Virus record (IMG/VR): IMGVR_UViG_2617270964_000007
Coordinates: 1 to 21,272 of that record
Direction: 5' to 3' (one strand)
DNA: 21,272 nt
DNA from: a virus
Taxonomy: Duplodnaviria > Heunggongvirae > Uroviricota > Caudoviricetes
Position 1 is the first letter of the stretch. Every line of letters starts with the position of its first letter. The translations under genes were made by a program, and so were the position numbers. Below, piece by piece: positions 1 through 21,180 of the stretch. The notes under the pieces were generated by a model. It had not been told where the DNA came from. It did no database searches and saw only the letters and a list, made by a program, of their open reading frames with translations.

Positions 1-1254
1 ATGCTGGAACAAATGGGCATTGCCGCGAAGCAAGCCTCGTATAAATTAGCGCAACTCTCCAGCCGCGAAAAAAATCGCGTGCTGGAAAAAATCGCCGATG
101 AACTGGAAGCACAAAGCGAAATCATCCTCAACGCTAACGCCCAGGATGTTGCTGACGCGCGAGCCAATGGCCTTAGCGAAGCGATGCTTGACCGTCTGGC
201 ACTGACGCCCGCACGGCTGAAAGGCATTGCCGACGATGTACGCCAGGTGTGTAACCTCGCCGATCCGGTGGGGCAGGTAATCGATGGCGGCGTACTGGAC
301 AGCGGCCTGCGTCTTGAGCGTCGTCGCGTACCGCTGGGGGTTATTGGCGTGATTTATGAAGCGCGCCCGAACGTGACGGTTGATGTCGCTTCGCTGTGCC
401 TGAAAACCGGTAATGCGGTGATCCTGCGTGGTGGCAAAGAAACCTGTCGCACTAACGCGGCAACGGTGGCGGTGATTCAGGACGCCCTGAAATCCTGTGG
501 CTTACCGGCGGGTGCCGTGCAGGCGATTGATAATCCTGACCGTGCGCTGGTCAGTGAAATGCTGCGTATGGATAAATACATCGACATGCTGATCCCGCGT
601 GGTGGCGCTGGTTTGCATAAACTGTGCCGTGAACAGTCGACAATCCCGGTGATCACAGGTGGTATAGGCGTATGCCATATTTACGTTGATGAAAGTGTAG
701 AGATCGCTGAAGCATTAAAAGTGATCGTCAACGCGAAAACTCAGCGTCCGAGCACATGTAATACGGTTGAAACGTTGCTGGTGAATAAAAACATCGCCGA
801 TAGCTTCCTGCCCGCATTAAGCAAACAAATGGCGGAAAGCGGCGTGACATTACACGCAGATGCAGCTGCACTGGCGCAGTTGCAGGCAGGCCCTGCGAAG
901 GTGGTTGCTGTTAAAGCCGAAGAGTATGACGATGAGTTTCTGTCATTAGATTTGAACGTCAAAATCGTCAGCGATCTTGACGATGCCATCGCCCATATTC
1001 GTGAACACGGCACACAACACTCCGATGCGATCCTGACCCGCGATATGCGCAACGCCCAGCGTTTTGTTAACGAAGTGGATTCGTCCGCTGTTTACGTTAA
1101 CGCCTCTACGCGTTTTACCGACGGCGGCCAGTTTGGTCTGGGTGCGGAAGTGGCGGTAAGCACACAAAAACTCCACGCGCGTGGCCCAATGGGGCTGGAA
1201 GCACTGACCACTTACAAGTGGATCGGCATTGGTGATTACACCATTCGTGCGTAA
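1..1254 (+). CDS. proA: Gamma-glutamyl phosphate reductase (glutamate-5-semialdehyde dehydrogenase), complete 417 aa
   Basis: Full-length ORF starting with ATG at position 1. The translation ([16 protein letters not shown]...GDYTIRA) matches enterobacterial ProA as I recall it, including length. Chromosomal gene flanking the prophage. Confidence 0.93.
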
Positions 1255-1368: not shown

Positions 1369-1444
1369 GCCGATATAGCTCAGTTGGTAGAGCAGCGCAT
1401 TCGTAATGCGAAGGTCGTAGGTTCGACTCCTATTATCGGCACCA
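1369..1444 (+). tRNA. thrW: tRNA-Thr, anticodon CGU, 76 nt including encoded CCA
   Basis: GCCGATATAGCTCAGTTGGTAGAGCAGCGCATTCGTAATGCGAAGGTCGTAGGTTCGACTCCTATTATCGGCACCA folds as a cloverleaf: 7-bp acceptor stem GCCGATA/TATCGGC, anticodon loop with CGT, T-arm GGTTCGACTCC. It lies downstream of proA, as thrW does in E. coli, and is a known integration site for P22-type integrases. Confidence 0.9.
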
Positions 1445-1458: not shown

Positions 1459-2619
1459 TTACCCCATATTTAAATACACCACGTTCTCCTCTTGTGCCGT
1501 ATTTGTGCCATTGCGACTTATAATCGCATCGATTTTGCTTGCGTGCTCGGTGAGATGCCCGGCTGAAAGGTGGGCGTATCTTTGAACCATTTCGAGAGTT
1601 TCCCATCCTCCCATCTCTTTAAGTGCAAGAAGAGAGACACCGGACTGAACCAGCCAGCTTGCCCAGGTATGCCTCAGATCATGGAAGCGGAAGTTACTAA
1701 TGCCTGCCCGCTTTAACGCTCCCTTCCATGCCTTGTTGCTGTCGGTTCTCATCTTCCTTACCGCTGCTGTTTTTGTTCCGTCGCTTCGGTAGGCAGGTTT
1801 GGTGTGGACAAATACCCATCTCTTATGGAGCCCCTGCTGTTTTCTTAATATCTGGCATGCGGTTTCGTTAAGAGGAACTCCGATCGCATTGCCAGCTTTT
1901 GTTTCATCAGGGTGTATCCATGCCATTTTCTTATCCAGATCGACCTGTGACCACTCAAGGTCTGTAACGTTGGAACGGCGAAGGCCTGTCGTGATTGCAA
2001 ACATGACCACAGGGAAGAAGTGAGGAGCAATTTCTGCAAACAGGCGCTTCGATTCCTCCTCTGTAAGCCATCTGATGCGTCCATTCTTAACGCGTGGTGT
2101 TGATATTTTGGGTGCCCTGTCAAGCCATCCCCATTCAACAGCCATATTGAGAATGGCGCGAAGTATTGCCAGATGCCTCGTCTTCGTTCCTTTGCTTGCA
2201 AGCTTTGGTTTATACTCCGGCACCGGATTGCCAAGTCGCAAACACCTGTCCCGGCTCATCTCCCAGTTCAGGCGATGGCGGCGGTTTTCCATCCCATCTA
2301 CCGCCTCCATTATTTTTTCTGTTGTTATGTCAGAGAGAATGGCTTCTCTGAAGTGCAACATCCAGAACGATATAATGCTCTTGTCATCATCAATGGACTT
2401 CTTATCCGATTTCTCACGCAGCCACCGTATGCAGGCTTCCTTGAATAGCTTTTTCGGTGATTCCCCGAGATTTTTTACTCTCCACGCTTCTGCTTTCAGA
2501 CGATCGTGAAGTTCTTGCGCTTGCCTTTTGTCCGATGTTTCAAGAGAGCGTCTAACTCTTGATCCATCTGGCGCGACGAAATCGCAGTGCCACGTGCCAC
2601 CGCGTAGTTTGATTGACAT
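1459..2619 (-). CDS. int: Tyrosine-type site-specific integrase (P22/CP4-6 IntF-like), 386 aa
   Basis: ATG at 2619 preceded by AGGAGG. C-terminal catalytic region HDLRHTWASWLVQSGVSLLALKEMGGWETLEMVQRYAHLS carries the tyrosine-recombinase HxxR...Y signature. Position next to a tRNA att site. Confidence 0.9.
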   Translation of the reverse strand: MSIKLRGGTWHCDFVAPDGSRVRRSLETSDKRQAQELHDRLKAEAWRVKNLGESPKKLFKEACIRWLREKSDKKSIDDDKSIISFWMLHFREAILSDITTEKIMEAVDGMENRRHRLNWEMSRDRCLRLGNPVPEYKPKLASKGTKTRHLAILRAILNMAVEWGWLDRAPKISTPRVKNGRIRWLTEEESKRLFAEIAPHFFPVVMFAITTGLRRSNVTDLEWSQVDLDKKMAWIHPDETKAGNAIGVPLNETACQILRKQQGLHKRWVFVHTKPAYRSDGTKTAAVRKMRTDSNKAWKGALKRAGISNFRFHDLRHTWASWLVQSGVSLLALKEMGGWETLEMVQRYAHLSAGHLTEHASKIDAIISRNGTNTAQEENVVYLNMG

Positions 2620-3946: not shown

Positions 3947-4673
3947 GGTTAACCTCCTGCGGCGGTTCTGGCAGCGGCATCCAGTGGGTTACGTCATCCA
4001 AGATATTTCCTGATAAATATGTGAAAGCTCTATATTTTTTGTAATCAATTGGACTCATTACCCAGTTCCAATATGCTGCCACTATTTGACCTTGACTAAA
4101 TGCCAGTAACATTTTGGTGTCGTCCGGCATTCGCTCACTACAGCTTATCCAACCATCCGGAGTTACCGGAGAGTTGCCATTTACATCGAAGTTTGGCTCT
4201 GCGTCCTGAATCAGGAGGATGTAGCCATTCTTGGCAGTATCAAGTTCTAACGCCTCGGTGACGGTGCCGAAATAGCGATTACCTAAATCAGCATCACAAG
4301 TACTTACATCAATGGAAACTTCCATGCCTTCGATTAATTCTGGCAAGTTGTAAGCTTGGCTTACAGGTTCGGCTTCCAGTTCTGCAATGCGCTTTTTTGC
4401 TGTTTCCAGCTCGCCCAGCAGCGCCAAGACGGTAGCCGGATTGGCTGCAGCGATGAATTCAGCATTGGCCTGCTGTTCCATTTGGAAATCTTCATCGAAA
4501 CCGCTTTCTGGATGCGCTCCTTCAATTCTGCAAATGGGAAGATATCCAACAACTTCACGATGAATTAGTGCATCACCAGCATCAAATCTCTCCTCTCCAT
4601 ATTCGAGCGACCACACACCACACGTTGCTTTCTCTGCCGCCTCACGCAGTGCCTGATAGTCAATCTTGCTCAC
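3939..4673 (-). CDS. Ead/Ea22-like protein with C-terminal DUF551-like domain; probable GTG start at 4673 (track ORF extends to 4694)
   Basis: AAAGGAGG lies 6 nt upstream of the GTG at 4673, giving [16 protein letters not shown]..., as Ead/Ea22-family proteins begin in my recollection. The C-terminal segment [11 protein letters not shown]...[10 protein letters not shown] resembles DUF551. Confidence 0.6.
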
Positions 4674-4837
4674 TGTTTGCCTCCTTTGCGCCACATCGCA
4701 TTCAGATATTTGTTTTGATTCACTGATGGAAAAGAATTTCTCTTAAGCAATTCCTCTCTCGATGGCATTGGCTTTACGCGTTGGCGAATAATCATTTCTG
4801 CCGGAAGAATGCCGGGATTGTATGCAAGTCCTCTCAT
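4670..4837 (-). CDS. Small basic hypothetical protein, 55 aa
   Basis: ATG at 4837 with AGAGGAA upstream. Its stop overlaps the start of the downstream Ea22-like gene (GTGA), suggesting translational coupling. Below the 60-aa ORF-track threshold. Confidence 0.3.
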
Positions 4838-4853: not shown

Positions 4854-5168
4854 TTAATTTATTCGTATGCCAGCTCTTTCTTCATCGAGTTTTTTTAGCT
4901 TGTATCGCATAGCTCTTACTGAATAAATTGAGCGGCAGGTTGCAATTGCTATTTCTTCTGCGGAGAACTTACCGAAAAGTGATACTTCGGCTCTTGTCCA
5001 GCGTCTTCCACGAAGTCGGCTAACAATGTCAGCGCCAATCCTTGTTGCTTTCGCCATAACTGCTTTTTCAGTCCTTTCCAGTTTTTCAGCGATAACTTCA
5101 ACTGGCATTGTCGCCGCTACTTCGCGCAAGAAATCGACTTCCCATTTCTCCCATGGAGTCTTTTTCAT
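4854..5168 (-). CDS. Hypothetical protein with two Myb/SANT-like helix-turn-helix repeats (tentative)
   Basis: Two segments with spaced tryptophans ([17 protein letters not shown]... and [24 protein letters not shown]...) resemble tandem Myb-like repeats. The start is probably the ATG at 5168; the track begins at a TTG at 5174. Confidence 0.45.
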
Positions 5169-5179
5169 AGGCAATACCG

Positions 5180-5662
5180 TTATTTGATAAGAAGTGAAGG
5201 TTTCCCAACTTTGAGTTGAGCGCCGGGGATATTTATTCCTGCTTTTAGTTGGTGTTTGATTGCCAGTTTGTCGGCTTTAATTGTCGTTTCAAACTCAACG
5301 TATTCAGGAGGAAGGGCGCTTGAGTCGATTATTTCTACAATTTCTGACGGTTTGCGGATTGTTACCTGGTGAATACCTGCTCGAATATTTTTCTTGCCAA
5401 CCATTTCAAGCGATGACGCTATATATGATTTGATGCTGTCAATCTTATTTTGAATTACTGCGGCTCGCTCATTTAGTGACTTTGCCTCTTCCTTGAGGCG
5501 TTCAGCATAACCATATTCATTTTTAATAATGGCAAGAAGTTGCTCTATTTTATCGGTAAATTCTCCTTCCATGCCTTCTATTGTGTCAGCAATCATCTCT
5601 GGCTCTAAATCTGAATCCATCAGCTTTGCATATTCATTGGCTATTTCATACAGTTTGCTCAC
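5180..5662 (-). CDS. Siphovirus Gp157-family protein (recombination-module accessory), about 160 aa, probable GTG start
   Basis: Coiled-coil-rich sequence immediately downstream of recT. AGAGGT lies 5 nt upstream of the GTG at 5662. Gp157-family proteins commonly accompany RecT/Sak recombinases. Confidence 0.55.
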   Translation of the reverse strand: MSKLYEIANEYAKLMDSDLEPEMIADTIEGMEGEFTDKIEQLLAIIKNEYGYAERLKEEAKSLNERAAVIQNKIDSIKSYIASSLEMVGKKNIRAGIHQVTIRKPSEIVEIIDSSALPPEYVEFETTIKADKLAIKHQLKAGINIPGAQLKVGKPSLLIK

Positions 5663-6548
5663 TGGCAACCTCTAGTTTCGCTTTGCATTCTATGTAAATG
5701 GCTTGTACGTTCTGCTGCAATTTCATTCCAGATGTCAGGCGATATGCTTCTGCAAAATATCGCTTCAAATCATCCATGTTTTCTGCCTGAGCCATTTCAT
5801 CACAAAGAAGTTGTGCTTTTTCCATAATTTCCTGCTGGTGTTTCCGTTCATCTTCGCGGATATCTTCCTCTGATTTGTGCGGCATAACTGGTTCCTGATG
5901 CATACCTTCATCTTCGTTAAGCAGGTGAATGGCATTATCCAGTCGCTGGGCTTTAGGCCAGTATTTGCTGGCGCGTTTAACTATTGTTTTACGCGCCATC
6001 TCTTCCCAGAATGTTTTCCACGGTCCATTCTTTGCCTTGCTCGTTGCTTCCACTGCTTTAATTTCTGCCAGACTCATTTCTTCAGTCAGGTAGTCACCAT
6101 CTGCTGTTTTTACCGTGCAATAACCACCAACAATAGAGCCTCGCTCTCCAAATGCGTTGTATTTGTGAGTTGGTGCTGAATCAAGGCCGTTTGATTCATA
6201 GGTGTCGTTTGAGTACACCAGTTTGCATTGCCCCCACTTAATTGATCCTGTCGATTGCGCAAGATGAAGTAATCCCATGTAACTGATATCAAGGCACACC
6301 ATGCCGTCGCGAGGAACCAGATAAGCTAGTTTGCTGGCCGGGTTTAAGGTGATGCCGATCGCCGCAACATTGATGATGGCGTTCTGTGCGCTGGTTGGAT
6401 TTGCCAGTGCTGTTTTAGCCAGGTAATCGTTTTTCTGGAAATACTGAATTGCAAACTGGCTTTCCTTAGCCCATGTCACCGTCTGTTCAGTCAATGCTCC
6501 GCAGAATAACTGCTCTTGCTGTTTAACGAATTCAACGATATTGCTCAT
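5646..6548 (-). CDS. recT: RecT-family single-strand annealing recombinase, 300 aa
   Basis: ATG at 6548 with GGAGAAG upstream. The translation has the RecT/Red-beta core as I recognise it (…PRDGMVCLDISYMGLLHLA…FGERGSIVGGYC…). It sits in the recombination position of the leftward early operon. Confidence 0.8.
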   Translation of the reverse strand: MSNIVEFVKQQEQLFCGALTEQTVTWAKESQFAIQYFQKNDYLAKTALANPTSAQNAIINVAAIGITLNPASKLAYLVPRDGMVCLDISYMGLLHLAQSTGSIKWGQCKLVYSNDTYESNGLDSAPTHKYNAFGERGSIVGGYCTVKTADGDYLTEEMSLAEIKAVEATSKAKNGPWKTFWEEMARKTIVKRASKYWPKAQRLDNAIHLLNEDEGMHQEPVMPHKSEEDIREDERKHQQEIMEKAQLLCDEMAQAENMDDLKRYFAEAYRLTSGMKLQQNVQAIYIECKAKLEVASEQTV

Positions 6549-6856
6549 GCAGCTTCTCCATAAATATGTCTGCGTTTGAATATTGCGAAGGCATATTCAG
6601 CCTTAACTCTTTCGGTTATTGCATCCCAGAACCATTCAGCGGCTTTTTCCTGATAGTTACAGTCATCATCTTCCAGCCAGTCGATAGCGTCCTTAGTGTG
6701 TTCATCTGGTTTATATGAGCGAAGCATTTCGCTTATTGGGTCGCAACGTTTGCAGAGGCGATCAACTTCACTGTTGATTCGCTCGTAATCTTCATCAGTA
6801 AAACTTGCGATTATTTGCGATATTTCACGCTTATCATTCAGAGTCAGAATCATCAT
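6545..6856 (-). CDS. Hypothetical acidic protein, 103 aa
   Basis: ATG-ATG start at 6856 with AGGAGA upstream. Translationally coupled to recT (ATGA overlap). No family recognised. Confidence 0.5.
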   Translation of the reverse strand: MMILTLNDKREISQIIASFTDEDYERINSEVDRLCKRCDPISEMLRSYKPDEHTKDAIDWLEDDDCNYQEKAAEWFWDAITERVKAEYAFAIFKRRHIYGEAA

Positions 6857-6941
6857 CTTTCTCCTGTTCTTTGTGCTGATTGAGCATTTCTTTCATCTGA
6901 CGAATGAATTCTTCGTCTGACCAGTTATCTGTAAAACTCAT
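6834..6941 (-). CDS. Small hypothetical protein, 35 aa, acidic C-terminus
   Basis: Start overlaps the stop of the upstream Kil-like ORF (ATGA). The short SD spacing makes it uncertain. Confidence 0.2.
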   Translation of the reverse strand: MSFTDNWSDEEFIRQMKEMLNQHKEQEKDDDSDSE

Positions 6942-7292: not shown

Positions 7293-7541
7293 CTACTCTA
7301 TTTCTTCTTCGAATGATTTTATTAGCCGGTCAATAACATCATCTGTTTCAATATCATTTCCGTCTGATTGCTTTAATACGTCTATTGATTCTGCTGCGGT
7401 AAATTCCATCGCTGTGAGAAACTCGACAATTGCACACTCAACGACATGTCGTTCTTCATCTGTACGACATGAGATAAAAGAGCATTTAATTGCTGTTATT
7501 ACTTTTTGTTTAAGTTCTGCAGGATAATCAGTTTTTATCAT
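7293..7541 (-). CDS. Hypothetical acidic protein, 82 aa
   Basis: ATG at 7541 with GGAG 7 nt upstream. It is the first gene after the intrinsic terminator at 7555-7584. No family recognised. Confidence 0.5.
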   Translation of the reverse strand: MIKTDYPAELKQKVITAIKCSFISCRTDEERHVVECAIVEFLTAMEFTAAESIDVLKQSDGNDIETDDVIDRLIKSFEEEIE

Positions 7542-9215: not shown

Positions 9216-9240
9216 AAAAAAAAAGGGGCGAATGCCCCCT
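9216..9240 (-). terminator. Rho-independent terminator at the 3' end of the repressor gene
   Basis: On the minus strand the hairpin GGGGGCATTCGCCCC overlaps the cI stop and is followed by 9 U (A-run 9216-9224 on the plus strand). It would insulate pL from repressor-gene transcription. Confidence 0.6.
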
Positions 9241-9890
9241 TATGGAAGGTTTGCTAGTTTTGCATCGACAACTACGCCGATGATTTTGCAGTTTCCGTTG
9301 ATCTCGATCATCGGATATTGTGGGTTAAGTGGTTTTAGAAACTTCCTGCCTGCATCAATAACTAACTTCTTGAAAGTTGCCTCGTTTTCTCCTTCGAGCT
9401 TTGCAACTACCAGTTTCCCGTTACGCGGCTCTACTTCAGGATCGACGAGTATTATCATTCCTTCAGGGATACTGAGACCGGCCGGAGCCGTCATTGAGTC
9501 TCCCTTCACGTCCAACCAAAACGAATCTTCTGAACAGTCTACGGTTGTATCGTACCAGTTATCTATTGCACGCTTATGATATGGTTCTACAGCTTCCATC
9601 CAGCATCCTGCGCTCACCCAGCTAATCAGAGGGTATGACCCTCTTGGATCATGCCTACTGTGATAGGCAATGTTTGAAAGACTTTCCTCTCCTTTCATCA
9701 GATAGTCAGGGGAACACTTCAACGCATTAGCCAGGGCGAGAAGATTCTCTCCATTTGGCTCTGTCTCAGAGCGTTCCCACTGAGATATGGCAACATTAGA
9801 CACGCCGACCATCTTTCCAAGTGCGGCCTGCCTGATCTTGAGTTCTTTTCTCCGAGCGCGAATGCGCTCTCCCATCAATTGAGTTTTCAT
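9240..9890 (-). CDS. c2: Phage repressor, P22 C2-type (HTH_XRE N-terminal domain plus LexA-like S24 autopeptidase domain), 216 aa
   Basis: HTH segment LKIRQAALGKMVGVSNVAISQWERSE. The C-terminal domain has the S24 catalytic motif GDSM and a downstream Lys (…VVAKLEG…). The whole protein closely resembles P22 C2 as I recall it. It is divergent from cro across operator sites. Confidence 0.9.
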   Translation of the reverse strand: MKTQLMGERIRARRKELKIRQAALGKMVGVSNVAISQWERSETEPNGENLLALANALKCSPDYLMKGEESLSNIAYHSRHDPRGSYPLISWVSAGCWMEAVEPYHKRAIDNWYDTTVDCSEDSFWLDVKGDSMTAPAGLSIPEGMIILVDPEVEPRNGKLVVAKLEGENEATFKKLVIDAGRKFLKPLNPQYPMIEINGNCKIIGVVVDAKLANLP

Positions 9891-9970: not shown

Positions 9971-10156
9971 ATGTACAAGAAAGATGTTATCGACCACTTC
10001 GGAACCCAGCGTGCTGTAGCTAAAGCGTTAGGCATTAGCGACGCAGCAGTCTCTCAGTGGAAGGAAGTCATCCCAGAGAAAGACGCCTATCGACTGGAAG
10101 TCGTTACAGCTGGCGCCCTGAAGTATCAAGAAAGCGCTTACCGCAAAGCGGCATAA
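9971..10156 (+). CDS. cro: Cro repressor, P22 Cro-like, 61 aa
   Basis: First rightward gene after oR. HTH segment TQRAVAKALGISDAAVSQW. The length and sequence resemble P22 Cro as I recall it. Confidence 0.85.
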   Translation: MYKKDVIDHFGTQRAVAKALGISDAAVSQWKEVIPEKDAYRLEVVTAGALKYQESAYRKAA

Positions 10157-12945: not shown

Positions 12946-12976
12946 AGGCCTGCTGGTAATCGCAGGCCTTTTTATT
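12946..12976 (+). terminator. Rho-independent terminator (tR2-like) between the replication genes and the nin region
   Basis: AGGCCTGC-(5-nt loop)-GCAGGCCT followed by TTTTTATTT, immediately after the helicase stop. Confidence 0.6.
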
Positions 12977-12993
12977 TGGGGGAGAGGGAAGTC

Positions 12994-13434
12994 ATGAAAA
13001 AACTAACCTTTGAAATTCGATCTCCAGCACATCAGCAAAACGCTATTCACGCAGTACAGCAAATCCTTCCAGACCCAACCAAACCAATCGTAGTAACCAT
13101 TCAGGAACGCAACCGCAGCTTAGACCAGAATAGAAAGCTTTGGGCTTGCCTTGGTGACGTCTCTCGTCAGGTTGAATGGCATGGTCGCTGGCTGGATGCA
13201 GAAAGCTGGAAGTGTGTGTTTACCGCAGCATTAAAGCAGCAGGACGTTGTTCCTAACCTTGCCGGGAATGGCTTTGTGGTAATAGGCCAGTCAACCAGCA
13301 GGATGCGTGTAGGCGAATTTGCGGAGCTATTAGAGCTTATACAGGCATTCGGTACAGAGCGTGGCGTTAAGTGGTCAGACGAAGCGCGACTGGCTCTCGA
13401 ATGGAAAGCGCGATGGGGAGATCGGGCAGCATGA
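12994..13434 (+). CDS. ninB: NinB (Orf-family recombination mediator), 146 aa
   Basis: ATG at 12994; the track ORF begins 18 nt upstream at a different start. The translation MKKLTFEIRSPAHQQNAIHAVQQILPD… matches lambda NinB as I recall it. Confidence 0.85.
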   Translation: MKKLTFEIRSPAHQQNAIHAVQQILPDPTKPIVVTIQERNRSLDQNRKLWACLGDVSRQVEWHGRWLDAESWKCVFTAALKQQDVVPNLAGNGFVVIGQSTSRMRVGEFAELLELIQAFGTERGVKWSDEARLALEWKARWGDRAA

Positions 13435-13958
13435 CTATCAAATCAAATACGCCAGCACACGACAAGGACTGCTGGCAAACGCCGCTTTGGCTTTTTGATG
13501 CACTGGATATTGAGTTTGGATTCTGGCTGGATTCGGCAGCGAGCGACAAAAATGCTCTGTGCGCTCACTGGCTAACTGAGGCCGACGATGCGCTCAATTC
13601 TGAGTGGGTAAGCCACGGTGCAATCTGGAATAACCCACCGTACAGCAATATCAGGCCGTGGGTGGAAAAAGCCGCTGAGCAGTGCATACAACAGCGACAG
13701 ACGGTAGTGATGCTTGTGCCAGAGGATATGTCTGTCGGATGGTTCAGCAAGGCTCTGGAGAGTGTTGACGAAGTTCGCATTATCACTGATGGACGGATTA
13801 ATTTTATCGAACCATCGACGGGGCTGGAGAAGAAGGGAAACAGCAAAGGCTCCATGCTGCTGATTTGGCGACCGTTCATCAGTCCTCGACGGATGTTTAC
13901 TACCGTATCCAAAGCGGCATTGATGGCGATCGGGCAGGGTGTCAGGAGGGCTGCATGA
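13431..13958 (+). CDS. Phage DNA N6-adenine methyltransferase (Dam family, NPPY motif)
   Basis: ATG at 13431 overlaps the ninB stop. It contains the catalytic motif WNNPPYS and the conserved WQTP motif near the N-terminus, typical of the phage Dam-family MTases. It sits between ninB and ninC, which are adjacent in lambda. Confidence 0.75.
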   Translation: MTIKSNTPAHDKDCWQTPLWLFDALDIEFGFWLDSAASDKNALCAHWLTEADDALNSEWVSHGAIWNNPPYSNIRPWVEKAAEQCIQQRQTVVMLVPEDMSVGWFSKALESVDEVRIITDGRINFIEPSTGLEKKGNSKGSMLLIWRPFISPRRMFTTVSKAALMAIGQGVRRAA

Positions 13959-14800
13959 TAAATGTCGTTAGTTTCTCAGGTGGCAGGACGTCAGCATATT
14001 TGCTCTGGCTAATGGAGCAAAAGCGACAGGCAGGTGAAGACGTGCATTACGTTTTCATGGATACAGGGGCAGAGCACCCTAAAACATATGAGTTCATCCG
14101 AAATATCGTCAGTAACTGGAAAATAGACTTACATTGCCTTCGTGTAATACCTAATCCAGAAATGGGGAAGGCCAGTAGTTATGAAGAGATAGGTGACAAT
14201 GATATTGGTCCAGATCTTATACCGTGGAAAAGGATGTTAAATAAATACGGACATCCATATATCGGCGGTGCGTTCTGTACCGACAGAATGAAGTCTGTTC
14301 CATTCACCAAATATTGTCAGGAAAAGTTTGGGAAAGGAAATTACATCACATGGCTTGGCATTCGCACAGATGAACCAAACAGGCTTAAAAGGGCTAATGG
14401 TTTTCGGTACCTGGCTGATATAAGCGATTTTGACAAACAGGATGTGCTTGATTGGTGGAGTGGGCAGAAGTTTGATCTTGGCATACAGGAGCATCTTGGT
14501 AATTGTGTTTTCTGTATAAAAAAAAGTATGCAAAAGGTTGCGCTGGCAGCCATGGATGAGCCAGAACTTGCAGATGCATTTATCAACATCCTTGATACAG
14601 AAATAAAAACAGGAAAGGAACCGGTTATGTATCGAGGGAATAATACACTTAAATCACTGATTGCCTTGTTTAGTGATATATCAAGAGATGAGTTAGCCTC
14701 AAGAATGACATCAATGCGACAGTATGATTCAGGTTCGTGTTCTGAATCATGTGAAGCATTTTCATGTCAGCTTGGATTTAATTTTGAGGATGCGGCATGA
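13955..14800 (+). CDS. ninC: NinC, PAPS-reductase-like PP-loop protein, 281 aa
   Basis: ATG at 13955 with AGGAGG upstream. PP-loop motif SFSGGRTS near the N-terminus and cysteine clusters CVFC and [10 protein letters not shown] near the C-terminus. The N-terminus [20 protein letters not shown] resembles lambda NinC as I recall. Confidence 0.8.
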
Positions 14801-15515: not shown

Positions 15516-15897
15516 CCGATACGGAAAAATAACGTTTAAACATTTTCAAGACAATCCAACATGGGCTGCTGCGGCTGGATATGACTTTAATTATTTTGAT
15601 TGTCTGTCAGTCGCATGTATTGCAACTACCAATGTTGCTAACAACATAATCGATGAATTCTTGGATTTTCCAGACTATCAGGTCAGAGAGTTGCCTGCAT
15701 TTTTTGTGAAAGTATCTGTTGCTACAGCTCTGTTATTTATTTTGTTATTCGCATATCCATTGCTTGCCGTATTTGTTTATGTGAGATGCAAGCACTCACA
15801 AAATGAATACACCGGAGAGCATACCGATATTACCAGCCAAAATATGCGAGTGTGGTTGAGGAGATGCCAAGAGAAATGGGGGAGAAGTCATGGCTAA
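15505..15897 (+). CDS. Hypothetical membrane protein, 130 aa, one predicted transmembrane helix, moron-like
   Basis: ATG at 15505 overlaps the ninF stop, with GAGGAAG upstream. The hydrophobic segment FFVKVSVATALLFILLFAYPLLAVFVYV is followed by a basic stretch. The gene is AT-rich and has no counterpart in the lambda nin region as I recall it. Confidence 0.5.
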   Translation: MVISRYGKITFKHFQDNPTWAAAAGYDFNYFDCLSVACIATTNVANNIIDEFLDFPDYQVRELPAFFVKVSVATALLFILLFAYPLLAVFVYVRCKHSQNEYTGEHTDITSQNMRVWLRRCQEKWGRSHG

Positions 15898-16180
15898 CCT
15901 ACGCAAAGAAGCGCGCGGAAGAGAATGCCAGGTACGTATTTACGGCATATGCAATGGAAATCCTGAAACTACAGTTCTGGCACATTACCGGATGGCTGGA
16001 ATTTGCGGAACGGGAATGAAACCTGACGACCTGATCGGCGCATGGGCTTGTAGTGACTGCCACGCGGAGATCGACCGACGCACAAGGATTCTCGACAACA
16101 AAGACGCCAGACTTTACCACCTCGAAGGCGTGATCAGGACGCAGGCGATACTGCTGAAGGAGGGGAAGATTAAGTCATGA
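15890..16180 (+). CDS. DUF1364 / YbcO-like putative metal-binding nuclease, 96 aa
   Basis: Cys/His pattern C-x7-C…H…C…C-x3-C-x2-H as in DLP12 YbcO. It lies immediately upstream of rusA, as ybcO does in DLP12. Confidence 0.7.
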   Translation: MANLRKEARGRECQVRIYGICNGNPETTVLAHYRMAGICGTGMKPDDLIGAWACSDCHAEIDRRTRILDNKDARLYHLEGVIRTQAILLKEGKIKS

Positions 16181-16539
16181 ACGAATATCAGTTTGTGCTT
16201 CCATACCCGCCGTCGGTGAACACCTACTGGCGAAGACGGGGAAGCCAATACCACATCAGCGATAAAGGCCAGAAATACCGAAAAGACGTTCAGCAAATCA
16301 TCCGCCAACTTAAGTTAGACATTTTCACCAAATCACGACTCCGCATCAAAGTCATCGCAGACGTTCCAGACTCCCGCCGCCGCGACCTCGACAACATCCT
16401 GAAAGGTTTACTCGACTCCCTTATCCACGCCGGATTTGCGGAAGACGACGAGCAATTCGATGACATTCGCGTAATTCGTGGTGTGAAAGTACCAGGCGGA
16501 CGGCTTGGAATAAAAATCACCGAACTGGAGAACGTATGA
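16177..16539 (+). CDS. rusA: RusA-family Holliday junction resolvase (NinG-position endonuclease), 120 aa
   Basis: Conserved RusA segments: PPSVNTYW near the N-terminus, the catalytic-aspartate region DVPDSRRRDLDNILKGLLDSL, and the GGRLGIKITEL C-terminus. Confidence 0.85.
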   Translation: MNEYQFVLPYPPSVNTYWRRRGSQYHISDKGQKYRKDVQQIIRQLKLDIFTKSRLRIKVIADVPDSRRRDLDNILKGLLDSLIHAGFAEDDEQFDDIRVIRGVKVPGGRLGIKITELENV

Positions 16540-19614: not shown

Positions 19615-20157
19615 ATGAACTACCCAACCGTTGTTAACGATATAGATTTCAGAGACCTAATTTTTGTAGCAAACAACGATCCGGTTACAGATTCTTTTAT
19701 GGTGGCAAAAGCATTTGGAAAGCTGCCGAAGAACGTGGTTCGTGACATTGAACGAACCATAGAAGCTTGCCCTCCTGAGTTTGATACAAAGCTCAACTTT
19801 GAGCTTTGCTATAAAAACAATGAGTTACAGAATGGTAAGCCGCAAAAATTCTACCGTCTCCGCAAGGATGGGTTGATGCTTTTGGTTATGTCCTACACCA
19901 AAAAAGAAGCAATGCGTATCAAAATTGCTTACATCAACGCATTTAACTGGATGTACGCCATGCTTCAGGTTGGTCATCGTCAATTTGAAGAAGAGAGAAA
20001 TGCCGTAATGCTGGAGTACATGAAAGAGAAGGATGTTGCCAGCATGTCAGGGCGCCTGCTTAATCGCTGGGGAAAAATTAAGAAGCCTCAGCTACTGGCG
20101 AGAATTGAACGCCTTGAACAGCACGGGCAAACCGTAATCCCCGGACTCACTAATTAA
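19615..20157 (+). CDS. rha: Rha-family phage regulatory protein, 180 aa
   Basis: The N-terminal domain pattern …VTDSFMVAKAFGKLPKNVVRDIERT…GKPQKFYRLRKDGLMLLVMSYTKKEAMRIKIAYINAFNWM matches the Phage_pRha family signature as I recall it (VxTDSxxVAxxFGKxHKNVLRDI…). ATG at 19615. Confidence 0.7.
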   Translation: MNYPTVVNDIDFRDLIFVANNDPVTDSFMVAKAFGKLPKNVVRDIERTIEACPPEFDTKLNFELCYKNNELQNGKPQKFYRLRKDGLMLLVMSYTKKEAMRIKIAYINAFNWMYAMLQVGHRQFEEERNAVMLEYMKEKDVASMSGRLLNRWGKIKKPQLLARIERLEQHGQTVIPGLTN

Positions 20158-20676: not shown

Positions 20677-21180
20677 TTATTGATAGTGTTTTATGTTCAG
20701 ATAATGCCCGATGACTTTGTCATGCAGCTCCACCGATTTTGAGAACGACAGCGACTTCCGTCCCAGCCGTGCCAGGTGCTGCCTCAGATTCAGGTTATGC
20801 CGCTCAATTCGCTGCGTATATCGCTTGCTGATTACGTGCAGCTTTCCCTTCAGGCGGGATTCATACAGCGGCCAGCCATCCGTCATCCATATCACCACGT
20901 CAAAGGGTGACAGCAGGCTCATAAGACGCCCCAGCGTCGCCATAGTGCGTTCACCGAAAACGTGCGCCACAACTGTCCTCCGTATCCTGTCATACGCGTA
21001 AAACAGCCAGCGCTGACGTGATTTAGCACCGACGTAGCCCCACTGTTCGTCCATTTCCGCGCAGACGATGACGTCACTGCCCGGCTGTATGCGCGAGGTT
21101 ACCGACTGCGGCCTGAGTTTTTTAAATGGCGGAAAATCGTGTTGAGGCCAACGCCCATAATGCGGGCGGTTGCCCGGCAT
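20677..21180 (-). CDS. insB: IS1 transposase InsB reading frame (expressed as the InsAB' fusion by -1 frameshift)
   Basis: The translation …[53 protein letters not shown]… is the IS1 InsB sequence. Confidence 0.88.

Follow-up and report, generated by a model that had tools for sequence, protein, structure and literature searches.

A nuclease-less RecT–Gp157 recombination module in a lambdoid prophage, in which the RecT tail changes with the downstream partner

Introduction

Recombination (Rec) modules with an annealase but no nuclease are common among lambda-like phages, and the classic precedent is that of P22 (arf-erf-abc1-abc2). Phages of the Abc2 type have no exonuclease of their own and use RecBCD instead (PMC9836394). 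The closest described relative of the locus studied here is the HK140/mEpX1 type, catalogued by Zheng, Casjens, Davidson, Amundsen and Smith (2025, Genome Res; PMC12315714). In HK140 an annealase of SAP type 4 is combined with an anti-RecBCD protein named 'MuGam', with neither a phage nuclease nor an SSB. In the same catalogue a nuclease is missing from 84 of 246 lambdoid Rec modules, and the modules of P22 and HK620 do not encode one (PMC12315714). The premise of a preliminary description of the present locus, that RecT-type annealases are normally paired with an exonuclease, was thus overstated.

Results and Discussion

The cassette and its prophage

The window (the whole stretch of 21,272 nucleotides that was analysed, IMG/VR record IMGVR_UViG_2617270964_000007) is a lambdoid, P22/HK140-like prophage integrated at the tRNA-Thr gene thrW. 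Its late region carries an IS1 transposase. On the gene map the Rec module lies between kil/cIII and int, within the early-left operon. The cassette is driven by pL and follows kil and cIII in the order orf40 (Arf-like), orf103, recT, gp157, abc1-like and orf55 (Table 1).

Table 1. Position of the cassette genes and of other recombination or nuclease-type genes in the window
Feature	Position	Strand	Description
orf40	6834..6941	-	35–40 aa acidic ORF (pI 4.2) right after kil; candidate Arf analogue
orf103	6545..6856	-	103 aa, acidic; phrog_3486; translationally coupled to recT
recT, annealing domain (residues 1–215)	5904..6548	-	Pfam RecT PF03837 over residues 31–214
recT, C-terminal tail (residues 216–300) and stop codon	5646..5903	-	Partner-specific; co-occurs with Gp157
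gp157	5180..5662	-	160 aa, GTG start; Pfam Sipho_Gp157 PF05565, phrog_253
Abc1-like gene	4854..5168	-	104 aa, basic (pI 10); phrog_323
orf55	4670..4837	-	Small basic ORF; phrog_1117; accompanies the block at most of the related loci
NinB (lambda Orf family recombination mediator)	12976..13434	+	Pfam NinB PF05772, E 2.3e-54; rightward operon, outside the cassette
RusA Holliday-junction resolvase	16177..16539	+	Pfam RusA PF05866, E 1.2e-15; nin region
YbcO 'putative nuclease'	15890..16180		Rightward nin region

The three co-oriented ORFs that the preliminary description had placed between 5180 and 6856 are present as described, on the minus strand and tightly overlapped. The stop codon of orf103 overlaps the start of recT (ATGA), and the start of gp157 overlaps the 3' end of recT by 17 nt. 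For gp157 the GTG start at 5662, located behind a GAGG, is preferred over the TTG at 5668 because the homologues are uniformly 160 aa long. The module extends beyond this interval, and the Abc1-like gene downstream of gp157 had been overlooked.

The module shares 92–98% DNA identity with those of HK140, mEpX1, Kapi1, Gally and EC.P3. Among 5,426 complete E. coli genomes, 302 carry the block orf103-RecT-Gp157-Abc1-like-orf55, which is also conserved across 80 IMG/VR loci. Serratia keeps the four-gene cassette, with small proteins that are just 31–39% identical. Purifying selection acts on each of the four core genes (dN/dS of 0.08 for orf103, 0.04 for RecT, 0.11 for Gp157 and ≈0 for the Abc1-like gene), and the value for orf55 is 0.24.

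These observations bear on the idea that the module is a decaying remnant left after loss of an exonuclease gene, for which the prophage context and the IS1 element could be cited. The same cassette is found in the viable, plaque-forming phages mEpX1, HK140 and Kapi1, its gene overlaps are precise, dN/dS is 0.04–0.11 and the cassette is conserved across genera. We regard decay as effectively refuted, and the 17-nt overlap of recT and gp157 leaves no room for an exonuclease pseudogene between them.

The module has the same genes, gene order, operon position and class as the HK140/mEpX1 type, and there is essentially no difference between the two, except that only RecT and MuGam are counted as module genes in the published catalogue (PMC12315714), whereas the present comparison shows that orf103, the Abc1-like gene, orf40 and orf55 travel with them. 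It is thus an ordinary, previously catalogued recombination cassette of lambda-like prophages, represented by another HK140-type allele. With an annealase, an annotated anti-RecBCD protein, no nuclease and no SSB, it falls into the functional class that Zheng et al. (2025) name 'P22'. The gene map agrees on the latter two points, as no SSB or nuclease Pfam match was found in the module, while the anti-RecBCD label comes from annotation only ('MuGam' for HK140, PMC12315714; PHROG 253). The window contains no Chi site, against 0.46 expected by chance, which is uninformative by itself. Zero sites fits the expectation for phages of the anti-RecBCD class, and the count speaks neither for nor against a hijack of RecBCD.

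No exonuclease gene in the early-left operon

Searches with Pfam, PHROGs and PADLOC identified no exonuclease family in any ORF of the early-left operon, between the repressor (9240–9890) and the integrase (1459–2619). The earlier statement that recT has no recognisable exonuclease partner is therefore confirmed for this operon. Profile searches of the two ORFs flanking recT, which had been proposed as a check, gave phrog_3486 for orf103 and Sipho_Gp157 for gp157, and no exonuclease domain. PADLOC found no defence-system match among the module genes.

In the two-component exonuclease–annealase type (lambda Red/RecET) the annealase gene adjoins that of YqaJ/lambda Exo or RecE; no such neighbour is found here. 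Nuclease-type ORFs in the window are limited to those of RusA and YbcO. Both belong to a different operon ≈9 kb away, and they are not exonucleases of the resection type. With no exonuclease in the early-left operon, reliance on host nucleases, one of the two options raised in the preliminary description, is the most likely consequence. Dependence on host nuclease activity is known for P22 (PMC9836394), and the present module probably resembles P22 in this respect.

The RecT tail changes with the downstream partner

RecT (300 aa, 5646–6548) matches PF03837 with an E-value of 2.6e-33 (115.7 bits, cut-off 24) and phrog_148 at 1.5e-91. [quoted passage not shown] The annealing domain is 73–82% identical to that of RecTs partnered with an exonuclease, whereas the C-terminal tail is unrelated to theirs. 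Tail identity is 34–94% among Gp157-partnered RecTs and 13–20% between these and the YqaJ-partnered ones. The tail of the Gp157-partnered proteins carries the conserved motif EPVM.H...LK..F..AYK.T.GMKLQQ.VQAIY.

The gene that overlaps the 3' end of recT encodes either a YqaJ exonuclease or Gp157, depending on the locus. All 14 loci with the window-type RecT tail have Gp157, and all eight with the unrelated tail have the YqaJ exonuclease, so that the RecT tail switches with the downstream partner (Gp157 in 14/14 versus 0/8 loci). On the tree of the annealing domains at least two exchange events are needed, and two suffice. The association could reflect plain linkage of adjacent DNA. When a profile of the tail was compared with the annealases adjoining distant Gp157 genes, the best matches were C-terminal but had E-values of 0.018 or weaker, and we make no claim from them.

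[quoted passage not shown] For RecT, a 2023 review gives it as unknown whether the partner is bound via the C-terminal tail (PMC11611040).

The cassette has the same three slots as lambda Red (gam-bet-exo) and the gamL-recT-exo modules of phi80 and Stx phages, in that the annealase gene is preceded by one for a small acidic protein and overlapped at its 3' end by that of the partner. It differs from gamL-recT-exo in that slot three holds Gp157 instead of YqaJ/lambda Exo and slot one holds orf103 instead of GamL.

Is Gp157 a nuclease?

The position of gp157, which is that of the exonuclease gene in the sister modules, could mean that Gp157 is a cryptic minimal nuclease supplying the missing activity. 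An AF2 model (pLDDT 82.6) predicts a long helix (residues 21–88) followed by a small β domain, and the order of elements, α-β-β-β-α-β, is like that of a PD-(D/E)XK core. Foldseek/BFVD searches returned phage PD-(D/E)XK, YqaJ and RecB-like exonucleases, with E-values of 4.5e-3 to 0.7; these matches are weak and may stem from the long helix. Conservation is high at several polar positions (D26, E29, K38, D131 and K132). Across 116 diverse members, however, the family conserves basic residues and no catalytic motif. No D...(D/E)xK pattern is kept in β2 or β3, where neither an acidic residue nor a Lys is conserved. The acidic content of β2 does not exceed 9%, 38% of the members have an acidic residue at E110, and at D113 Asp occurs in 76% and Asn in 16%. 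The protein is also, at 160 aa, well under the size of known resection exonucleases and matches no nuclease family in Pfam, PHROGs or PADLOC. Judged from residue conservation, a hidden PD-(D/E)XK nuclease is unlikely, and we consider nuclease activity of Gp157 very improbable overall. The suggestion that a neighbour of recT supplies an unrecognised function retains some probability; Gp157 fills exactly the slot of the YqaJ exonuclease, but it has no conserved nuclease-type catalytic motif.

The Gp157 family and its neighbours

The protein had been called Gp157-like, and it matches PF05565 over its full length (E-value 5.9e-37; 127.6 bits, cut-off 28.6; profile positions 1–162) as well as phrog_253 (4.6e-53). 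The family is large, with 7,141 representative clusters (50% identity) at E ≤ 0.001. When the viral contigs were scanned again, with the distant representative P0156, there were no matches. In nine diverse clusters the adjoining gene encodes ERF in five cases and a Rad52-like protein in two, and phage records show Gp157 beside RecT, Sak4 and Rad52-like genes.

According to the Pfam description of the family, Gp157 is associated with greater phage resistance in Streptococcus thermophilus, and one source calls a homologue a 'resistance protein'. Gp157 might on this basis be a phage-resistance or superinfection-exclusion protein that merely adjoins recT and has no role in recombination. Such a role is at odds with its tight linkage, often with overlapping coding sequences, to the unrelated RecT, ERF and Rad52-like families, and by annotation to Sak4, in distant phage groups. 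In addition, the gene takes turns with that of the exonuclease, Gp157 and the RecT tail co-vary, and PADLOC gives no match to Gp157. We find the resistance role highly doubtful.

Possible likeness of Gp157 to Mu Gam

The preliminary description did not mention that Gp157 proteins are widely annotated as Mu Gam-like; PHROG 253 carries the annotation Mu Gam-like end protection. Mu Gam (PF07352) binds double-strand ends in a Ku-like manner. The two proteins are of similar size (160 aa for Gp157 and 174 aa for Mu Gam), and both are predicted to have a helix of ≈60 residues followed by a small β/α domain. An Abc1-family gene adjoins Gam in Mu and Gp157 in the window. In Firmicutes phages members of either family neighbour annealase genes, sipho_gp157 and Mu gam taking the same position next to erf and sak4 (PMC8093625).

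The two belong to different Pfam and PHROG families, and a Pfam search of the window protein gave no match to PF07352. Among the 116 Gp157 relatives, 26 touch PF07352 at E ≤ 1, the best at 9.3e-5, but coiled-coil noise families score similarly. An hhalign comparison placed residues 41–153 of Gp157 collinear with 47–159 of Mu Gam over 102 columns (E-value 0.0024, probability just 12%). The weak score can be ascribed to the shallow Mu Gam profile, as the homologue search returned only relatives that were at least 72% identical. In the AF2 models of both proteins the elements follow one another in the same order, and their register agrees with this alignment. PDB sequence searches with a single Gp157 sequence and with the A2 profile gave coiled-coil noise only, and fold searches with Gp157 did not retrieve 2p2u, a solved structure of a putative Mu Gam homologue. 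Our own evidence for homology between Gp157 and Mu Gam, drawn from profiles and models, is consequently weak and statistically insecure, although consistent. No published biochemistry on the Gp157 family was found in the literature, and we know of no experiment in which a Gp157 protein was shown to bind DNA ends or to inhibit RecBCD.

Small accessory genes

The acidic protein upstream of RecT, orf103, has a pI of 4.65 with 24 acidic and 15 basic residues, and its gene is preceded by an AGGAG ribosome-binding site. It matches phrog_3486 only (1.7e-59), with no Pfam match, and the Serratia homologue in the same position is 39% identical. In phi80, HK639 and phiON-2011 the slot directly upstream of recT is held by GamL (phrog_1050). 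A direct profile-profile comparison of orf103 with GamL was not significant (E-value 0.066). Three bridging ORFs (L193, L176 and L198) match GamL in their N-terminal half (8.7e-9) and orf103 in their middle and C-terminal part (3.8e-5). Through these bridging sequences only, orf103 is possibly linked to GamL as a divergent anti-RecBCD protein. A relationship to P22 Abc2 was rejected, as BLASTP showed no similarity.

The Abc1-like protein contains two helix-turn-helix-like repeats (W...E...IA.KL.R...AV). Its phrog_323 match (5.5e-21) is shared with P22 Abc1 (1.3e-23) and Mu gp9 (5.2e-29). BLASTP aligned it with Mu gp9 (5e-5) and gave no pairwise alignment with P22 Abc1. By these profile matches the ORF belongs to the P22 Abc1/Mu gp9 family, and the gene is annotated as 'similar to P22 Abc1' in phage Gally. 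PDB profile searches with orf103 and the Abc1-like protein gave nothing significant.

The N-terminal motif SDEEFI of orf40 resembles that of P22 Arf (accessory recombination function). The ORF matches phrog_2123/17766 over its N-terminal 21–32 aa, has a dN/dS of 0.31 and precedes orf103 at most of the related loci as a conserved element, which makes it a possible Arf analogue.

The module thus resembles P22 in having no exonuclease, in the small accessory genes that flank the annealase, in an Arf-like ORF after kil and in an Abc1-family gene downstream. It differs in that the annealase is RecT and not Erf, and in that Gp157 takes the place of Abc2, of which there is no homologue here. P22 hijacks RecBCD by binding RecC; of a Gam-like protein one would instead expect that it keeps RecBCD from DNA ends.

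A rival reading is that Gp157 is no passive end cap but works as an adaptor, recruiting or reprogramming a host nuclease (RecBCD, as with P22 Abc2, or another) and passing the single strand to RecT via the tail. Replacement of YqaJ by Gp157 in its slot, together with the switch of the RecT tail, is what would be expected if resection were coupled to annealase loading. The Abc1-family gene next to gp157 points the same way, and P22 provides a precedent, since Abc2 modifies RecBCD to load Erf (PMC9836394). Gp157 has no similarity to Abc2 (phrog_656), however, and both the published annotation and the weak homology favour Mu Gam, a DNA-end binder that blocks RecBCD. We consider the adaptor unlikely.

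A model for the module

The explanation we favour, and think probable, is that of a known type of nuclease-less Rec module in which Gp157 shields the DNA ends, host enzymes resect and RecT anneals. RecT would, as a member of its family, anneal complementary single strands. Gp157, in the slot of YqaJ/lambda Exo, would bind DNA ends as a Mu Gam-like dimer and so shield those of the phage from RecBCD, and it probably docks to the dedicated C-terminal tail of RecT, as lambda Exo does on Red-beta. Resection of the 5' strand would be left to the host, and with RecBCD blocked a RecQ/RecJ-type route seems most likely. If the block of RecBCD is complete, resection would fall to some other nuclease. Alternatively, RecT might act on single-stranded DNA at replication forks.

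Accessory roles would fall to orf103, which is possibly GamL-like, to the Abc1-like protein and to orf40 as an Arf-like factor. The P22 and phi80 counterparts of these three aid recombination or inhibit RecBCD. NinB and RusA, encoded elsewhere in the prophage, may provide the mediator and resolution steps.

A broader reading is that Gp157 proteins are more than Gam-like end caps, being dedicated, tail-docked annealase partners that functionally replace the exonuclease and act on the DNA end, either by recruiting a host nuclease or helicase or by end-processing of their own. We think this quite improbable. If true, it would represent a second, exonuclease-free type of two-component phage recombinase, working with RecT, Erf, Rad52-like and Sak4 annealases.

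The practical value of the finding is modest; it concerns a very large family that is found beside annealases of several families. When RecT systems are ported for recombineering, the tail and the partner are best kept together. What is added here to the known module is that the RecT tail and the downstream partner appear to move jointly as a cassette, which supports the idea that RecT binds its partner through the C-terminal tail.

Gene content of the recT module

The 21.3 kb analyzed cover the early part of a lambdoid prophage that sits beside tRNA-Thr(CGT), a thrW-type attachment site of the kind also used by P22-like phages. The leftward (minus-strand) operon runs from N-like, orf75, orf156, orf82, cIII, kil, orf40, orf103 and recT to gp157, Abc1-like, orf55, Ea22/DUF551, ASCH-like, orf63, orf114, xis and int. 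The rightward operon contains CII, O, DnaB-type helicase, NinB, Dam, PAPS-reductase-like, NinX, YbcO, RusA and Q genes, with lysis genes, a Rha-like gene and an IS1 transposase 3' of Q. The prophage may be disrupted at the IS1 site, and the PAPS-reductase-like ORF may serve in DNA modification or anti-defence.

Features of the prophage early region (positions in the window)
Feature	Position	Strand	Remarks
proA-like aldehyde dehydrogenase gene	1-1254		upstream of prophage
tRNA-Thr(CGT)	1369-1444	+	after proA-like gene, directly adjoins integrase gene
Integrase	1459-2619		left end, as is a putative excisionase
Abc1-like ORF	4854-5168	-	104 aa, basic, two helix-turn-helix-like repeats
Gp157 gene	5180-5662	-	GTG start at 5662, 17 nt within recT; GAGG ahead of start
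recT	5646-6548	-	Pfam RecT, 115.7 bits
orf103	6545-6856	-	acidic, pI 4.65; good ribosome-binding site; ATGA overlap with recT
orf40	6834-6941	-	acidic; directly after kil
orf82	7293-7541	-	phrog_14587 'anti-restriction protein', E 9.2e-48; upstream of cIII, same operon
CI/C2-type repressor	9240-9890
cro-like gene	9971-10156
Dam methylase	13371-13958		adjoins PAPS-reductase-like ORF
PAPS-reductase-like ORF	13865-14800	+	nin region; PADLOC models SspD (3.8e-14), BrxP, DndC matched
YbcO 'putative nuclease'	15890-16180	+	PF07102, E 1.2e-43; nin region, immediately upstream of RusA
RusA	16177-16539	+	nin region
Rha-like regulator	19615-20157
IS1 transposase ORF	20677-21180	-	PF03400, E 1.1e-77; late region, just past Rha-like regulator

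The three ORFs of the preliminary description, orf103 (103 aa), recT and a Gp157-like gene, are real and correctly placed. The start of the Gp157 gene is best read as the GTG, which gives a protein of 160 aa, the length common to all homologues, that matches PF05565 (Sipho_Gp157) from end to end. The preliminary description had also seen no recognisable exonuclease. Every substantial ORF in the window was scanned with Pfam, and the leftward ORFs with PHROGs and PADLOC as well; no exonuclease family was found across the early-left operon, nor was an overlooked exonuclease domain detected in the ORFs neighbouring recT. Apart from YbcO and RusA, the window has no nuclease-type ORF. These two belong to the other operon, outside the Rec module, and neither is a resection exonuclease. 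A decaying locus is ruled out by the clear purifying selection on all four core genes (dN/dS 0.04–0.11).

Distribution of the cassette

The block is found at 92–98% identity in phages Kapi1, 683R2, Louie, Gally, mEpX1, HK140 and EC.P3. The gene order orf103 > RecT > Gp157 > Abc1-like > orf55 hardly changes across 80 IMG/VR loci while the flanks are variable, as is typical of a mosaic module. The cassette occurs in 302 of 5,426 complete E. coli genomes, with the RefSeq label 'RecT family recombinase | siphovirus Gp157 family protein'. Serratia prophages retain all four genes despite identities of only 39% (orf103) and 31% (Abc1-like), and this retention argues for a functional linkage of orf103, recT, gp157 and the Abc1-like gene. 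Two contigs of 1.9 kb labelled Micromonospora sp. (L182) and Streptomyces sp. (L183) carry orf103-like genes 98% identical to the Serratia prophage ones, adjoining an enterobacterial-type recT; they are probably contaminant contigs within actinomycete assemblies.

Among 325 lambdoid phages, 13 functional Rec-module types have been distinguished (Zheng, Casjens, Davidson, Amundsen, Smith, Genome Res 2025, PMC12315714). Since HK140 carries the module seen here, the nuclease-less arrangement has already been described and the module is known. The earlier observation is confirmed and its interpretation partly supported: the exonuclease gene is missing, but the pairing is not unusual.

Joint variation of RecT tail and downstream gene

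The RecT annealing domain (residues 1–215) is common to many phages at 72–81% identity, and tblastn matches end at about residue 215, before the C-terminal tail (residues 216–300). In phiON-2011, Vibrio phage 1.119.O and Aeromonas phage 51 a gene for YqaJ, a lambda-Exo type exonuclease, overlaps the 3' end of recT. HK639 and Vibrio phage 1.247.B, like Serratia and mEpX1, have gp157 at this place and keep the RecT tail.

Identity of RecT proteins to the window RecT
RecT	Partner	Residues 1-215	Residues 216-300
Serratia	Gp157	88%	53%
HK639	Gp157	75%	45%
Vibrio 1.247.B	Gp157	56%	34%
phiON-2011	YqaJ	73%	16%
Vibrio 1.119.O	YqaJ	81%	14%
Aeromonas 51	YqaJ	76%	15%

In a species-dereplicated genome scan, the window-type tail had Gp157 downstream in all assessable loci (14/14), and unrelated tails were accompanied by YqaJ, without Gp157, in 8/8. 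This alternation in the slot, with co-variation of the RecT tail, is a new result. The tail lies right next to the partner gene, so part of the association stems from linkage itself, and on the annealing-domain tree just two switches are enough to account for the pattern. The breakpoint lies at the RecT domain boundary, not the gene boundary, in agreement with annealase C-terminal domains as partner binders; such binding has been demonstrated between Red-beta and lambda Exo and is listed as 'unknown' for RecT (PMC11611040). RecTs with an Exo partner can also be preceded by orf103-like genes, as in L189 and L192, and in L195 YqaJ is followed by an Abc1-like gene, so the exchanged unit is precisely the tail and its partner.

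Properties of Gp157

The Gp157 family comprises 7,141 clusters at 50% identity and 566 phage records. In nine diverse viral-metagenome clusters the adjacent gene was ERF (five), Rad52-like (two), a helicase (one) or unknown (one), and no exonuclease domain was found in the genes adjoining Gp157. Annotated phages have it beside RecT, Sak4-like and Rad52-like genes. Judged by these neighbours, Gp157 appears to be a general annealase companion. In Firmicutes phages sipho_gp157, Mu gam, DUF2483 and DUF1351 share the position beside erf / sak4 (Steczkiewicz et al., 2021, PMC8093625).

BLASTP gave no match between Gp157 and Mu Gam. With hhalign, a 116-member Gp157 profile aligned collinearly with Mu Gam (41–153 to 47–159, E 0.0024, probability 12%), and 26 of the 116 members touched PF07352 at E ≤ 1 (best 9.3e-5), scores close to those of some coiled-coil families. 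The AF2 model of Gp157 (pLDDT 82.6) has a 68-residue helix, then beta-beta-beta, a short helix, a helix and two strands; in the model of a Mu Gam homologue the elements follow one another in the same way, and their register agrees with the hhalign alignment. These faint but consistent likenesses make 'Mu Gam-like' the best available reading of Gp157.

It is very unlikely that Gp157 itself is the missing nuclease: the element order of its model resembles the PD-(D/E)XK core, but beta2 and beta3 carry no conserved acidic residue or lysine in the 116 diverse members. Foldseek against BFVD gave, beneath Gp157 relatives, weak matches to phage PD-(D/E)XK, YqaJ and RecB-like exonucleases (280–400 aa, E from 4.5e-3 to 0.7), which may stem from a fused domain of Gp157 type, from the topology of the nuclease core or from the long helix alone. 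Most of the conserved polar positions are basic (K38, R62, K78, K104, K132, K140 and K160), the acidic ones being D26, E29 and D131; such a profile suits a DNA-binding protein more than an enzyme.

Neighbouring small proteins

The slot directly upstream of recT, occupied here by orf103, holds GamL (phrog_1050, the phi80 anti-RecBCD protein) in phi80, HK639 and phiON-2011. Direct profile comparison of orf103 with GamL was not significant (E 0.066). In Yokenella and Citrobacter, hybrid-looking ORFs that precede recT (L193:2693-2989, L176:2693-2989 and L198:2693-2989) match GamL in the N-terminal half (E 8.7e-9) and orf103 in the remainder (E 3.8e-5), collinearly. As these bridge the two, the chances are roughly even that orf103 is a GamL-type protein that has diverged, or else a protein that shares the slot with GamL and can recombine with it.

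The Abc1-like ORF belongs to phrog_323, with P22 Abc1 and Mu gp9. Mu gp9 (L004:5482-5781) is immediately upstream of gam (L004:5801-6325), and the phrog_323 gene here adjoins the putatively Gam-like Gp157 gene. Small Abc1-type proteins recur beside known or putative DNA-end-acting proteins (Mu gam, the window Gp157, YqaJ in L195). Orf40 shares with P22 Arf (accessory recombination function) an N-terminal 'SDEEFI', acidity and the position right after kil. Abc1 and Arf are uncharacterised helpers (Wilkinson et al., PMC9836394).

Possible mode of action

Exo-annealase complexes and Mu Gam dimers have been treated as alternative DNA-end-binding factors, both kinds holding RecBCD off phage ends (Hong et al., bioRxiv 2025, PMC12407980). 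The weak homology and published annotation suggest that Gp157 may act on DNA ends and keep RecBCD off, while the co-varying tail and the example of lambda suggest that it may dock to the RecT tail. RecT would, from what is known of its family, perform single-strand annealing. The RecF pathway operates in E. coli with RecBCD inactive. From established E. coli genetics, resection could be provided by host RecQ/RecJ-type functions, or RecT could work at replication forks; mediator and resolvase functions come from NinB and RusA.
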